A stretch of DNA of 64,000 nucleotides from contig OX597830.1 of the NCBI GenBank assembly GCA_951406725.2, forward strand, positions 73,408,001 through 73,472,000, given 5' to 3'. A model generated the notes under the pieces. The model saw only the letters and a list, made by a program, of their open reading frames with translations. It was not told the DNA's origin and searched no databases. The translations under genes and the position numbers were made by a program. Source of the DNA: Octopus vulgaris (lineage: Eukaryota). Below, one piece after another: positions 7,675-54,349 of the stretch. How positions within the stretch are numbered: the first letter of the stretch is position 1; every line of letters starts with the position of its first letter.

Positions 7675-7981
7675 CACCATCACGTGACCGACCAGACCAT
7701 CAGATGTTGTTACACATCGCTGGTCACAATGCGTTCGCATTGTTTTAGCCTTCGAATGACGCCACCTCGCTGGCTAAGCGAGCAGGCCAACAGAAGAAAG
7801 AGTGGGAGAAAGTTGTGGTGAAAGAGTACAACAGGGATCACCACCACCCCCTGCCGGAGCCTCGTGGAGCTTTTAGGTGTTTTCGCTCAATAAACTCTCA
7901 CAACGCCCGGTCTGGGAATCGAAACCGCGATCCTACGACCGCGAGTCCGCTGCCCTAACCACTAGACCATTGCGCCTCCAC
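7675..7981 (-). mobile_element. SINE family C, tail type 3
   Basis: tRNA-like head GGAGGCGCAATGGTCTAGTGGTTAGGG...GGTTTCGATTCCC. The tail also occurs alone at 36093-36201, 36770-36890 and 53728-53820. Confidence 0.88.
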
Positions 7982-8244: not shown

Positions 8245-8904
<660 letters not shown>

Positions 8905-17044: not shown

Positions 17045-17279
17045 ACCTATTTCTTTATTACCCACAAGGGGCTAAACACAGAGGGGACAAACAAGGACAG
17101 ACATAGGTATTAAGTCGATCACATCGACCCCAGTGCGTAACTGGTACTTAATTTATCGAGCCCGAAAGGATGAAAGGCAAAGTCGACCTCGGCGGAATTT
17201 GAACTCACAACGTAACGCAGACGAAATACCGCTAAGCATTTCGCCCGGCGTGCTAACGTTTCTGCCAGCTCGCCGCCTT
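17045..17279 (-). mobile_element. SINE family A, full length with TSD
   Basis: 13-bp TSD TTGAAATATTATA at 17032-17044 and 17280-17292. Confidence 0.92.
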
Positions 17280-18558: not shown

Positions 18559-20560
18559 CAAAGGTCACCAAACTTATTTCGCAGCGGGTCAGATAGCCGA
18601 GAGAATGTCGAGCGCTGGCAGCATAACCACTTTGTTTAACACAATATAGTGAATACACAAAACATAGAGACAACCAACATATTTATTTACCAAAAAGTCA
18701 TCAAAGAATGTGATGTTAACCTTAAAATAGTTATATCACACCAGTGCGCATATATCCGAATTTTGTTGTCTGTTCCTTCTCGAGCCATGCCTGGCTCATA
18801 AGGGCCAGTTTCCCGGTTTCATTGGCGTATAGGTTCCCCACCTGGACAGGACGCCAGTCCGTCGCAGGTGAGCAGCAAGATGCAAGAGGAAAGAGTGAGA
18901 GAAAGTTGTGGCAAAAGAGTCAGCAGAAGTTTCGCCATTACCTTCTGCCGGAGCCGCGTTGAGCTTAGATGTTTGGCTCATAAACACACACATCATCCGG
19001 TCTGAGATTCGAACCCTGGATTCCTCGACCACGAGTCCGCTGCTCTAACCACTAGGCCATGTGCCTCCACACGTATCCGAATCTCACAAACTAAGCAGCA
19101 AAAATGGTTAGTGAGATTTGTGAAACTGCTGTTTAGGTTTTAAGATATCAATATTTTCTTTGGAATTGCTGCATCCAACCAAGAGAATTCCTTTCAGTTG
19201 GTCATCAGTCAAGCTCGTTCGATGCGCTTACTGCACAGATATAAGTTGTTCCAAACACTGATGCCATGCCAAAGGCAAATGTCTTCAAATTTGAAAACTC
19301 ATCATCAGGTAAACAACGATAAGATTCAACAAGTTTTCCTCCTCTGTGCTTCTCTTTCAACAAGTTAATTGCTTGCAAATCAATTAGCATCATTTGTACG
19401 TCATCAAGTTTGCAATTAAATGGATTCTAGAACAGAAGAATGTCATTCTCAATCTTGTCGAGATCTGAAAATTCCTGCAAATAATGCTTATTTAAATCGC
19501 GAATAATCTTCTTCGGGAACTAAAGGTTGAGATCTTTTTGCGATTCCCGCGCGAAGCTCTTTAAAATACTGAAAATGAGAGAAGTTTCCTCCTTCCAGTT
19601 GTACTTGAAACAATGATAGCTTTCTCTGAAATCTTTTGATGATTCTGTAGAGATCACAGATAAGGTTATCCTTTCCCTGAAGTTTCAAGTTCAATTCATT
19701 CATCTGGGATGTGATGTCAACTATAAATGATAACTTTGAGTGCCAAGGAAAGATCTGACAGAAGTGGATCAGTTCTATCCTTTTCAGTAAGAAGAATATC
19801 TATTACTGTTCGGAGATTTAAAAAAAAACAAAAAACGAAAGAGGATTTTATCGCAGCTGAGCCACTTAACTGCTGTGTGATAAGGTAACTCACAGAATTC
19901 AGAATCAATTTCATCAAGTAAAGCCTAGGACTGGCGGTGATTAAGGGCATGACCCCGAATGAAGTTCACCGCAGAACGACTGGTTTCAGTTCGCAAGAAA
20001 TACCTGTCTTTCCCACAGAGTGCTTGGTGATGTATAATGTAATGTATCAAAGAGCAGCCATGTTTTTACCTACATCAAGTGTAACACATCGAAACCGATT
20101 CCGCTGAAGGTTATAGCCTTGCAAAATTTTCTGCACTTCCATAAAAATGTCTTCTCCAGTTGTTGTTCTGCGCACGCTGCAAATGGATGCCAAATCCTTT
20201 GTGATCTGAAAGTCCAAATTGACATCACGAATGAATACGAGAAGTTGTGACATATTCGAGAGATCAGTAGACTCATCCAACACCGGAGAATACCGCAAGT
20301 AGTTCCTAACTTTCTCGCGTATCTGTAGCACTATGTTCTCTCGAAGTTCTTCAGTTCTCCGCACAGCTGAACTTGCCGAAAGGTTGATACTTACGAGCAA
20401 CACAAGTCATTTGCTGCTTCCATCATACACTCTTTGGTGAGGTTGTCGCTCTGCCATCTTATGCACTATTTTGTCACTTATAGGTGTGACAGATTCATTT
20501 TCAGCAAACATTCTCGTGAAGAGAATGTTTAAAAATGGCAATGCAAGTTAAAACATAATC
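18559..20560 (-). mobile_element. Decayed hAT DNA transposon (Charlie/Buster/SPIN, GTF2IRD2-like transposase pseudogene)
   Basis: Minus-strand fragments: TKECMMEAANDLC, VLDESTDLSNMSQLLVFIR...TTTGEDIF...VTLDVGKNM, HYIIHQ, NELNLKLQGK, FGTTYIC, with stops and frameshifts. Degenerate Charlie-type end CAAAGGTCACCAAACT at 18559 is preceded by an NNNTANNN site CTCTAAAC (18551-18558). The other TIR was not found. Confidence 0.85.
18766..19070 (-). mobile_element. SINE family C, tail type 2, inserted in the hAT element
   Basis: TSD core TATCCGAAT at 18753-18761 and 19074-19082. Confidence 0.9.
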
Positions 20561-24738: not shown

Positions 24739-25557
24739 TTATTTATATATATATATATATATTTATGCACACACACACACATACACACAAACACATAGTG
24801 TGTGTGTACATATAAAATTGAAATCATTTTCTTTGATGTCATTGAACTTTATTATTCGTGACTGAGAAGGGTTAAAACGATTTCCTTCAAACGTTCAATA
24901 CGATATTGTCTGCAGTTTTTCATCTCAATATACTGCAGTCAAAGGTTAGGTTATTTAACAGAGAGAGGAAAAAAAAAGCAAAGTGTTTTGTTCTCAGATA
25001 AAAATTTTCATCAAAGAGTAACAGTCTGTTCTTGGCCATTTTAAATGTAATTATATCTATTTTTAGCATTTATATTAGTTGTAGAACGTACGTACGTATT
25101 GGTCTGTATATACGAAAGCCAGTGTAAGTGAATGGATGTGTGTGCGTGTATACAAGTCGTTTTATTATAGAATATAGAAACTGTGAGAGACGTGAAGTTA
25201 TTCGTTTTCAAGTGTGGAACTCGAAGTAGATGAAGCTATAAATAACAGACTGGTTTAAAAATACCGTGTGTGTCTCTGTGTGTTTGTGTGTGTGGGTGTT
25301 TATGTGTGTCCTTGTGTGCGCATATTCGCTGGTGTGTTTCTTTCTACTTTGTACATATTCAACTTTGCATTTTGCTGAAACTTAGAAAAGTCTCATGCCT
25401 TAGAAGTTCAGACCGATACACAGACACACACACAAAACACATCATACACAGAGCGAGACAAATAGATAATTAGATATCTGTGTGTGTGTGTGTAAAGACT
25501 CATGTGCTTGTCTTGTACTGTTCTCTTCCTTCTCTCTAGACTTCTGTCTCTTTCCTC

Positions 25558-25591
25558 TTTCTGACGAGGAGCTTAGGCTCGAAACGTCAGA
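25558..25591 (+). ncRNA. Minimal hammerhead ribozyme motif
   Basis: UUU-CUGACGA-G-GAGC(UUAG)GCUC-GAAA-C-GUC-AGA: intact core boxes, 4-bp stem II, loop-less palindromic helix III (ACGU), 3-bp helix I. Confidence 0.7.
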
Positions 25592-25697
25592 TCCCTTCTT
25601 TTTTTCTCCACATCTTAAATTTTCCCTGAGATTCAATCTAATACATTCACTGTATGCCCCACTTGGCTTTTATAGTTTTCCTGCTTTTATTATTGAC

Positions 25698-25756
<59 letters not shown>

Positions 25757-26401: not shown

Positions 26402-26407
26402 ATATAG

Positions 26408-26509
26408 TTAATCCAAACAAGTAAACACAAAAAAAAACAAAAAAAAACACAGCAACGCGAGGACGTGGAACAAATAAAGTATTATTGGACGCTCAGGAAA
26501 GGAGGGAAG

Positions 26510-26510
<1 letters not shown>
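26408..26510 (-). mobile_element. Truncated copy of the 8559-8761 element
   Basis: AGTTAATCCAAACAAG...CAACGCGAGGACGTGGAACAAA...GTATTATTGGACGCTCAGGAAAG shared with 8559-8650. Embedded in (TA)n. Confidence 0.85.
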
Positions 26511-26566
<56 letters not shown>

Positions 26567-27809: not shown

Positions 27810-28192
27810 GTGGAGGCGCAATGGCCCAGTGGTTAGGGCAGTGGACTCGCGGTCGTAGGATCGCGGTTTCGATTCCCAGACCGGGCGTTGTGAGTGTTTA
27901 TTGAGCGAAAACACCTAAAGCTCCACGAGGCTCCGGCAGGGGATGGTGGTGATCCCTGCTGTACTCTTTCACCACAACTTTCTCTCACTCTTACTTCCTG
28001 TTTCTGTTGTACCTGTATTTCAAGGGGCCGGCCTTGTCACTCTCTGTGTCACGCTGAATATCCCCGAGAACTACGTTAAGGGTACACGTGTCTGTGGAGT
28101 GCTCAGCCACTTACACGTTAATTTCACGAGCAGGCTGTTCCGTTGATCGGATCAACCGGAACCCCCGTCGTCGGAACCGACGGAGTGCTTCC
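27810..28192 (+). mobile_element. SINE family C, tail type 1, full length
   Basis: A box TGGCCCAGTGG and B box GGTTTCGATTCCC. Near-identical to 34810-35080. Confidence 0.9.
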
Positions 28193-33923: not shown

Positions 33924-34209
33924 TTGCTCCTTCTCGAGCTACGTCTGGGTTTCCCGGTTTCCTTGGCGTATAGGTTCCCCACCTGGACGGGACGCCGGTC
34001 CGTCGTAGGTGAGCTGCAAGATGCAGGAGGTAAGAGTGAGAGAAAGTTGTGGCGAAAGAGTCAGCAGAAGTTCGTCATTACTTTCTGCCGGAGCTGCGTG
34101 GAGCTTAGGTGTTTCGCTCATAAACACACCCATCGCCCGGTCTGAGATGTGAACCCACGATTCCTCGACCGCGAGTCCGCTACTCTGACCACTAGGCCAT
34201 ATGCCTCCA
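33924..34209 (-). mobile_element. SINE family C, tail type 2
   Basis: 15-bp TSD CAAAGGACAGCATGT at 33909-33923 and 34210-34224. Confidence 0.92.
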
Positions 34210-34284
34210 CAAAGGACAGCATGTGGGTTATACACACACACGTGTGTGTATGCATGTATGTTTGCATGTATGTATGTATTTTTC

Positions 34285-35080
<796 letters not shown>

Positions 35081-44918: not shown

Positions 44919-45439
<521 letters not shown>

Positions 45440-45917: not shown

Positions 45918-46407
45918 TATACATACATATATATAGATATTGACATACATTCACATGCACTTGCATATGTACGTGTATTATATATAAACTGTTTTTTCTG
46001 AGACTACCCACATCTAAGAATCTCAGTTACTTAACACATGTATAATATATTTCGAGGCGTATTCTGCACACTACAAACATATTCTCTATCTCTTCCAAGA
46101 CACCGGGTCACATTTCAGATGACATAGCAGGGGTTAAACGTCCAGGCTTACAAGCTGTGTGAAAAGCAATTATTTATTGAATGCTAAAACGCTTAATGTA
46201 CTGATCCTTAAAGTTTTACTCTGTTCACATAACAACCATATGGACATGTATCAAATATTATCTTAACTCTCTTGGATTGAATTAATTAAAGTTGAAATAA
46301 AATATGGAATGCAGTAGGCAATGTGTCAAATATTTTGTAGGGTACAGACAAAGGAGATTATGTTTTGGTGTTATTAAACCTTATCAGTGTAGAATTTAGA
46401 TATATAT

Positions 46408-46635
46408 ATCTTTACTACTCATAAGGGGCTAAATACAGAGGGGACAAACAAGGACAGACAAACGGATTAAGTCGATTATATCGACCCCAGTGTGTAACTG
46501 GTACTTAATTTATAGACCCCTAAAGGACGAAAGGCAAAGTCGACCCCGGCGGAATTTGAACCCAGAACGTAACGGCAGACGAAATACGGCTACTCATTTC
46601 GCCCGGCGTGCTAACGTTTCTGCCAGCTCGCCACC
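46408..46635 (-). mobile_element. SINE family A, full length
   Basis: Reverse complement of the 53474-53706 sequence. Confidence 0.9.
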
Positions 46636-46703: not shown

Positions 46704-47004
46704 TGGAGGCATATGGCCTAGTGGTTAGAGCAGCGGACTCGCGGTCGAGTGATCACGGATTCAAATCTCAGACCGGGTGATGTGTATGTTTATGAGCGAA
46801 ACACCTAAGCTCCACGCAACTCCGGAAGAAGTTAATGGCGAACTTCTGTTGACTCTTTCGCCACAACTTTCTCTCACTCTTTCTTCTTGCATCTTGCAGC
46901 TCACCTGCGATGGACCGGCGTCCCGTCCAGGTGTGGAACCTATGCGTCAAGGACACTGGGAAACCGGTCCTTATGAGCCAGGCGTGGCTCGAGAAGGAAC
47001 AAAC
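46704..47004 (+). mobile_element. SINE family C, tail type 2
   Basis: Contains CCTGCGATGGACCGGCGTCCCGTCCAGG (V-domain-like). TSD ATGTATGTGTGT. Confidence 0.9.
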
Positions 47005-47993: not shown

Positions 47994-48282
47994 GGAGGCA
48001 CATGGCCTAGTGGTTAGAGCATCGGACTCGCAGTCGAGGGGTCTCGGGTTCGAATCTCAGACCGGGCGATCTGTGTGTTTATGAGCGAAAACACCTAGGC
48101 TCCGACAGAAGGTAATGGCGAACTTGTGCTGACTCTTTCGCCACATCTTTCTTTCACTCTTTCCACCTGCATCTTGCAGCTCACCTGCGACGGACTGGCA
48201 TCCTTTCCTGGTGGGGAACCTATACGCCAAGAAACCGGGAAACCGGCCCTTATGATCCAAGCGGGGCTCGAGAAGGAAAAAA
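47994..48282 (+). mobile_element. SINE family C, tail type 2
   Basis: 13-bp TSD CAAGTACCTTATT at 47980-47992 and 48283-48295. Confidence 0.92.
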
Positions 48283-53473: not shown

Positions 53474-53706
53474 AAGGCGCCGAGCTGGCAGAAACGTTAG
53501 CACGCCGGGCGAAATGCGTAGCCGTATTTCGTCTGCCGTTACGTTCTGAGTTCAAATTCCGCCGAGGTCGACTTTGCCTTTCATCCTTTCGGGGTCGATA
53601 AATTAAGTACCAGTTACGCACTGGGGTCGATGTAATCGACTTAATCCCTTTGTCTGTCCTTGTTTATCCCCTCTGTGTTTAGCCCCTTGTGGGTAGTAAA
53701 GAAATA
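53474..53706 (+). mobile_element. SINE family A, full length, young, in (TA)n
   Basis: GGCGCCGAGCTGGCAGAAACGTTAGCACGCCGGGCG...GGGTAGTAAAGAAATA. Confidence 0.92.
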
Positions 53707-54019: not shown

Positions 54020-54349
54020 ACGTAACTGGCATTTATTTAATCGACCCCGAAAGGATGAAAGGCAAAGTCGACCTCGACGGAATTTGAACTCAGAACATAG
54101 CGGCAGACGAAATACCTATTACTTTACTACCCACAAGGGGGCTAAACATAGAGAGGACAAACAAGGACAGACGTAGGTATTAAGTCGATTACATCGACCC
54201 CAGTGCGTAACTAGTACTTAATTTATCGACCCTGAAAGGATGAAAGGCAAGGTCGACCTCGGCGGAATTTGAACTCACAACGTAACGGCAGACGAAATAC
54301 GGCTATGCATTTCGCCCGGCGTGCTAACGTTTCTGCCAGTTCGCCGCCT
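54020..54349 (-). mobile_element. SINE family A, full copy plus tandem partial copy
   Basis: Full copy at about 54115-54349 and a partial copy at 54020-54114. Confidence 0.9.

Follow-up and report, generated by a model that had tools for sequence, protein, structure and literature searches.

Hammerhead motifs and repeat units in the window

The window analysed here, a stretch of 64,000 nt from the genome of Octopus vulgaris, contains a minimal hammerhead ribozyme motif, CUGACGA-G-GAGC(UUAG)GCUC-GAAA-C-GUC, at 25561-25588(+). The motif lies inside a pyrimidine-rich unit (25491-25700) with (TG)7 on one side and (CA)n on the other. An initial annotation had described both conserved boxes, the 4-bp stem II and the palindromic helix III of this motif, as well as the placement of a unit of about 200 nt between simple repeats, and these descriptions were confirmed on the sequence. 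The units and motifs, assigned to families F1 to F3, are as follows:

25491-25700, +, F1 unit: old, 5'-truncated pseudo-LTR (pLTR) copy of a Penelope-like element (PLE), between (TG)7 and (CA)n
25561-25588, +, minimal hammerhead motif: canonical core CUGACGA, bulge, stem II GAGC/GCUC, GAAA, palindromic ACGU, GUC triplet
34277-34504, +, second F1 unit, decayed: 76% identity to the focal unit over 136 nt
34360-34386, +, decayed motif: C3U (UUGACGA), broken stem II pair, AAAA instead of GAAA
34502-34694, +, F2 unit: pLTR, ends in (TA)n, 74% identity to the pLTR of intact element L155
34568-34595, +, A6U motif (CUGUGGA): 4-bp helix I, GUU triplet
8560-8763, -, F3 unit: pLTR, flanked on both sides by (TG)n/(TA)n
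8662-8688, -, U4C motif (CCGACGA): GUU triplet
26407-26511, -, fifth copy (F3): shorter, cut off 3' of the motif, with (TA)n runs on both sides

The same architecture had been proposed to recur at 8688(-), 34360 and 34568. Related units do exist at these positions, but among the four window motifs both boxes are intact in the focal copy only. CCGACGA at 8688 and CUGUGGA at 34568 are fixed subfamily states rather than products of decay. The fifth copy, at 26407-26511(-), had escaped the initial annotation. Judged by sequence, unit 34502-34694 is the pLTR of a lineage with an intact 4.5-kb PLE as its youngest member, and unit 8560-8763(-) that of a lineage including an intact 6.2-kb PLE. The trinucleotide GCC is common to the 3' end of unit 34277-34504 and the start of unit 34502-34694.

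Helix I of the focal motif consists of only 3 weak pairs (25558-25560 with 25589-25591), and the predicted fold of this copy hides the core within a long hairpin (ensemble frequency 0.85, z -1.6). A tRNA scan of the window found 0 genes, in agreement with the initial annotation, and a TBLASTN search with an intact PLE protein gave no match to it. The statement that the units have no ORF is likewise true within the window, but the F2 and F3 lineages have ORF-bearing members elsewhere and F1 has decayed ORF ends. No hammerhead was present among the 150 matches listed of 373 to Rfam over the window, these being of a microsatellite-driven, miRNA type; a scan of 25520-25640 with E values up to 10 returned no hammerhead model and 2 chance matches.

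Families, copy number and divergence

The genome searched comprises 2.8 Gb in 227 contigs. Searches with the units yielded 228 (F1), 1,436 (F2) and 1,884 (F3) candidates, and 40 of each were scored. The F3 unit 8560-8763 was 91-94% identical to 39 other top-ranked copies, the F2 unit 34502-34694 was 86-91% identical to 39 other scored copies, and the focal unit was 72-79% identical to 39 other top-ranked genomic copies of F1. Median divergence from the F1 consensus was 0.16, and the F1 motif pattern had just 9 exact genomic matches; F1 is an old, scarce family.

Profile HMMs run over 800 kb of evenly spaced genome stretches identified 19 units (9 F2, 10 F3, 0 F1), with 0 in the reversed sequence. 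The density of about 24 units per Mb gives, by extrapolation from these 19 units in 800 kb, about 65,000 units genome-wide. Short copies greatly exceed long ones in number. Ten subfamily consensus rows were obtained, bearing out the earlier impression of several subfamilies.

Ends and targets of the insertions

To study insertion shape, 90 copies were drawn from three motif searches according to genome position. The run (TA)3 was found 85-140 nt 3' of the motif in 69/90 copies, compared with 13% of random 61-nt windows, so that insertion at (TA)n, as had been suggested, holds. A TTATA tract about 100 nt beyond the would-be cut site marks the fixed 3' end. Free 3' ends pass from this tract directly into (TA)n, and where units of either young family are joined in tandem, the short TTATA tract closes the pLTR and the element body follows.

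The 5' ends range from 4 to more than 1,200 nt upstream of the core in the same 90 copies, although alignment of CA-rich sequence may inflate some of the long values. Measured from a conserved ATG located about 60-90 nt before the core, 33/90 copies begin between -15 and +5, 4 between -99 and -16 and 22 beyond -100, the rest starting further in. The size class of about 200 nt recognized in the initial annotation is thus real, with 33/90 copies beginning in one 20-nt zone. The ATG at this peak (window sites 25491, 34281-34290 and the region of 8763) runs directly into a stop codon (ATG-TAA or ATG-TGA) in F1, F3 and F4, and not in F2.

Of 79 incidental copies, for which the motif had played no part in selection, 67 extend across the would-be cut site and 12 begin 9-75 nt past it; in 0/79 did a 5' end fall within 8 nt of this site. 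A second same-strand motif within 400 nt was seen in 1/90 copies, and the units are therefore not retrozyme arrays. An opposite-strand motif within 400 nt occurs in 4/90 copies, and loci L184/L185 and L202 carry inverted unit pairs at close spacing, as described for PLE insertions.

Linkage to Penelope-like elements

Remnants of reverse transcriptase (RT) and GIY-YIG endonuclease (EN) were present upstream of F2 units, on the same strand, in 4/30 loci, and ORF homology within 1.5 kb of F1 units in 1/30 loci only. The RT remnant as query returned 3,372 candidates, of which 150 were scored; many of these lie within frames of 1,000-1,200 codons. In 20 genome stretches picked for such long frames, a same-strand motif was located 474-887 nt 3' of the frame in 20/20 loci, and in 15/20 there was an upstream motif too. 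Direct repeats in 13 of these loci are 97.0-99.8% identical, with a 5' repeat of 342 nt up to a full extra unit, and their junctions fall mostly within simple repeats. The check for linked RT/GIY-YIG frames that had been proposed was thus positive in all 20 long-ORF loci, and the suspected tie to PLEs is supported by units flanking intact frames as 97-100% direct repeats.

The intact 4.5-kb family of the F2 lineage encodes a protein of 1,082 aa with an RVT_1 match above cut-off and a weak C-terminal GIY-YIG match below it (E 0.007). The protein contains the motifs ADKG, YIDD and YIGQT, and in the two young families the CX4CX2C linker between RT and EN reads CSRPRCRTC and CSRSRCNTC. It has 1,108 homologues (E up to 0.001), including named proteins of turtle, shark, snail, coral and urchin; those listed are 39-56% identical to it and carry RT Pfam calls. 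For the F3-type master, the 150 scored endonuclease matches were 99-100% identical, and 10 genome stretches contained a 949-aa frame in a 6.2-kb unit with repeats of 98.3-100% identity.

A follow-up for F1 was seeded from the single F1 locus with ORF homology. The endonuclease tail of this one locus gave 10 matches, with F1-like units behind 4/10 by BLASTN and behind a further 2 by HMM; those found by BLASTN sit about 500-750 nt downstream of decayed GIY-YIG ends on the same strand. At one locus RT-EN homology is retained over 360 residues. No intact F1 master was found in the genome searches. In a tree of 12 endonuclease fragments from this genome and 9 other rows, built only from sequences of this genome and unclassified homologues and with three of all rows under half filled, the 12 grouped together (98/96), and the F2 rows (100/99) and two U4C rows (99/99) formed separate branches.

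Copies of all three families extend upstream into 3' UTR or ORF sequence. Hallmarks of EN+ PLEs are a single ORF, RT, a CX2-5CxxC linker, a C-terminal GIY-YIG domain and partial tandems of pLTRs (PMC8557442). The units are 5'-truncated 3' ends (pLTRs) of PLEs that DKG, YIDD, the CX4CX2C linker and the combination of RT with GIY-YIG mark as Neptune/Nematis type (Craig 2021, PMC8557442). With Neptune and Nematis elements these PLEs share ORF layout, partial tandems, a truncated upstream copy and microsatellite bias; the joint label follows domain features. The initial proposal of a separate non-autonomous family is not upheld, as the three families continue upstream into PLE sequence and two of the lineages have intact young masters.

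Whole elements also occur head-to-tail (L352-L353, L169-L170): one site has three 6.2-kb units, and a second has 4.5-kb units. Internally deleted elements of the F2 lineage, in which the start of RT is joined to the end of the endonuclease, are present at L043 and L035 and may be 1-2-kb non-autonomous derivatives. Loci L324:3-1754(+), with a 583-codon open frame, and L104:2003-3026(+) hold another PLE-type RT-endonuclease lineage, which shares about 30% identity with the families described here.

State of the hammerhead

Exact motif matches in the 2.8-Gb genome numbered 5,118 for the canonical core, 19,618 for cores with a base other than A at position 6, and 9,312 for U4C, with 0 for reversed controls. 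The motif is not a product of chance, because 5,118 canonical matches contrast with 0 for the reversed pattern. A core change is present in 28,930/34,048 exact copies (85%), a count that favours young copies. Among position-6 variants, U was found in 97 of the first 100 matches listed. In the intact 4.5-kb family the downstream motif has U6 in 20/20 loci together with a 5-bp helix I, and in the intact 6.2-kb family 15/17 motifs have C4, with a U-U mismatch in helix I. The CUGANGA box is altered in both young intact families (A6U; U4C) and is present in the focal copy and in the consensus of F1, F2-A6, F3-canonical and F4. A young copy of the 6.2-kb family, L359, has the canonical U4 in both pLTRs; such cases are likely to be single CpG-type reversions. 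CpG decay was rejected as the source of all canonical F3 copies, which have other diagnostic bases and are more diverged (0.069 vs 0.034).

GAGC/GCUC, GAAA, ACGU and GUH are kept in 10/10 subfamily consensus rows, where the variable sites of the motif are U4, A6, N7, loop II and N17. Invariant columns make up 20/27 of the motif compared with 4/72 upstream and 22/112 downstream, a figure with some circularity, many copies having been chosen by their motif. The fit of the canonical subfamilies to the published minimal consensus agrees with the descent from a minimal type I hammerhead that had been put forward. The argument that stem II is kept by selection on RNA structure did not hold: among 54 real copies (the best 5 per subfamily and the 4 window motifs; 42 distinct rows), 0/4 stem II pairs had changed on both sides. 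The stem is invariant and therefore without covariation support. Helix I pair 4 switches from C-G to G-C between lineages (14/42 rows), probably in one event.

Helix I is 4-5 bp long in 8/9 subfamilies of F2, F3 and F4, the exception being a U4C/GUC subfamily with the U-U mismatch. The F1 consensus (38 copies) has U-A, U x C, U-A at this position; no two contiguous pairs are present, and F1 is a family without helix I. Predicted folds were no better than those of shuffled sequences (z -1.6 to +0.3). An alternative U3-type core register for the A6U motif was discarded on inspection, since helix I is lost and N7 variants break it, as was a conserved alternative hairpin, whose register differs between families.

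The published A6C cleavage rate is <0.1 per min, and U4C, although less active in vitro, is sufficient in vivo for a viroid (PMC3088659); no value for an A6U cleavage rate was found in the literature searched. Because F1 is without helix I and the two young families have core changes, a working ribozyme in these families seems doubtful. Nevertheless, the motif is the best-kept block and, like a working hammerhead, varies freely at N7, loop II and N17; it may therefore still be catalytic. Sequencing contigs of four runs (type guessed) cover pLTR and ORF, with no GT-AG joint among the joints listed, and are uninformative on expression, splicing and cleavage.

A second conserved block lies 20-45 nt past the cut site (about 25628-25645) in all subfamily consensus rows: first GAGCG, then the word TAATAC. 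Pairing is conceivable between the GAGC of this block and the 3' strand of stem II; TAATAC resembles a splice branch point.

Proposed mechanism and alternative explanations

The pLTR identity of the units, their fixed 3' end, the ragged 5' end with one peak, the intact cut site and the fixed core changes in two young lineages are established. Very probably, the units are 3' ends of PLEs inserted in 5'-truncated form into (TA)n, with a hammerhead that is weak or not needed for the spread of active families. Since a catalytic-core mutation is fixed in each of the two youngest intact families, these likely spread with little or no self-cutting. Transcription would start about 10 nt ahead of the conserved ATG of the upstream pLTR, an internal pLTR promoter being known from Drosophila Penelope (PMC2377424). 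The element endonuclease would nick (TA)n DNA, and reverse transcription would prime internally at the TTATA tract ending the pLTR. Synthesis running to the 5' end of the RNA would yield the class of about 190-200 nt; full elements, whose upstream pLTR is truncated, would derive from longer read-through RNAs. The 5' peak could alternatively reflect microhomology of ATG/TG with the target. The internal-priming model follows the precedent of Frangieh 2024 (PMC11167929), in which initiation is internal, hammerhead core mutants insert unimpaired in vitro, and cleavage needs protein. For the conserved stem II-GAAACGU block, the role would be that of a signal for protein binding or folding, or of a slow ribozyme assisted by protein. 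A more specific version, which we advance tentatively and at rather less than even confidence, is that two independent, still-jumping PLE families disabled their hammerhead cores (A6U; U4C with broken helix I) and kept stem II and GAAACGU; the ribozyme would now act, without cutting, as a signal to the protein of the element itself, and the repeats of about 200 nt would be run-off products from the pLTR start to the internal TTATA priming site.

The pLTRs might instead carry A6U and U4C motifs that are still working ribozymes, acting through dimers or with the element protein, with cut monomers ligated into template circles. With such circles, already proposed as a model (PMC4209133), each DNA copy would regain its cut site. 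The concentration of variation at N7, loop II and N17 suits this idea, as do the C-G to G-C switch of helix I pair 4 (14/42 rows, probably one event) and the longest helix I (5 bp) in the youngest A6U family, and the Poseidon hammerhead cuts only with protein added (PMC11167929). However, A6 changes strongly lower activity (A6C <0.1 per min; PMC3088659), the young U4C family also has the U-U mismatch in helix I, none of the 79 incidental copies is a run-off starting at the cut site, and a 5' peak upstream of the motif is more in keeping with a linear RNA that has a start site than with a circle. Retained catalysis is a minority possibility.

It is unlikely that the short units replicate independently as a retrozyme- or SINE-like non-autonomous family borrowing the PLE protein. 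In its favour, short copies are far more numerous than long ones and prefer one 5' start, transcription of solo copies could come from an internal promoter like that in the pLTR of Drosophila Penelope (PMC2377424), and retrozymes derive from pLTRs (bioRxiv 10.64898/2026.07.22.740005). Against this, all three families have copies reaching 3' UTR or ORF, 5' ends are spread from 4 to >1,200 nt upstream of the core, and, with a second same-strand motif within 400 nt in 1/90 copies, retrozyme-type tandem arrays are absent from the sample. Highly improbable is a chance look-alike, or a purely DNA-level signal without ribozyme ancestry: the failure of Rfam to find a hammerhead at 25520-25640 (E up to 10), folds not above shuffles (z -1.6 to +0.3) and a stem II without covariation would fit, but the canonical subfamilies match the published minimal-hammerhead consensus term by term, in pLTRs (PMC4209133), and the 5,118 canonical exact matches stand against 0 in the control.

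Comparison with known systems

Minimal hammerheads in pLTRs, solo copies and a microsatellite bias are already published. The octopus motifs share with the minimal hammerheads of PMC4209133 a U-rich 5' flank, short helix I, CUGANGA with a bulged base, a G-C pair opening helix II, GAAA, a loop-less CGU palindrome and NUH, as well as location in both pLTRs and a prevalence of solo copies. The focal family differs from them in having no helix I. All 44 of the 44 alignment rows inspected from that paper keep U4 and A6 (the descriptor used there required the boxes), whereas 85% of the octopus copies are of A6U type or U4C. Molluscan examples in Cervera and De la Pena 2014 (PMC4209133) include Lottia and Crassostrea; no cephalopod rows were among the alignment rows inspected. 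Canonical hammerheads are described as universal in PLEs other than Naiad/Chlamys (Craig 2021, PMC8557442), in contrast to the two young octopus families with their non-canonical cores.

Poseidon of Anolis (PMC11167929) is similar in its 3' end, fixed within the RNA downstream of the hammerhead, in its AT-rich targets and in that uncut RNA is apparently the template. It differs in that its ORF begins in stem II, that of the octopus elements several hundred nt later, and in a start site non-homologous to the target, whereas the octopus 3' boundary TTATA matches the (TA)n target. Metazoan non-LTR retrozymes resemble the octopus units in small size, type I hammerhead and kinship to pLTRs, but form tandem arrays without coding members, unlike these dispersed monomers, which are continuous with coding elements.

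PLEs have been catalogued in octopus (190 families, 6.83% of the genome, PMC13282606; also PMC8967140), and hammerheads are unmentioned in the main text and one supplement of PMC13282606. The literature searched yielded no account of PLE hammerheads in cephalopods and none of an A6U core in nature, although Repbase/Dfam, the octopus library or several supplements may already list these families. Both the element class and the motif class are known ones, and the twist would lie in the core changes of the young families. The role of hammerheads in PLEs has been called unclear (Craig 2021, PMC8557442). One in vitro system found cleavage dispensable, and recent, intact, core-changed elements bear on the same question; if the disabled-core version is true, they are a natural experiment on the purpose of PLE hammerheads. 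As recent core-changed elements coexist with older canonical relatives and with L359, activity and transposition can be compared on natural alleles. Descriptor searches that need CUGANGA miss 85% of exact motif copies in this genome. For annotation, an estimated 65,000 dispersed short repeats belong under PLE ends rather than SINEs or unknowns.

Other repeats in the window

Another dispersed repeat, of about 180 nt, has 8 matches in the window: 34810-34990, 27810-27991, 7799-7981(-), 45166-45331, 18892-19070(-), 46704-46880, 34033-34210(-) and 47994-48160. We take it to resemble a tRNA-derived SINE head. A third, high-copy repeat of about 230 nt is found at 17045-17277, 53481-53706, 54111-54348 and 46405-46635, with about 20 further matches, and one of its copies interrupts the 3' UTR of the PLE remnant in L043.
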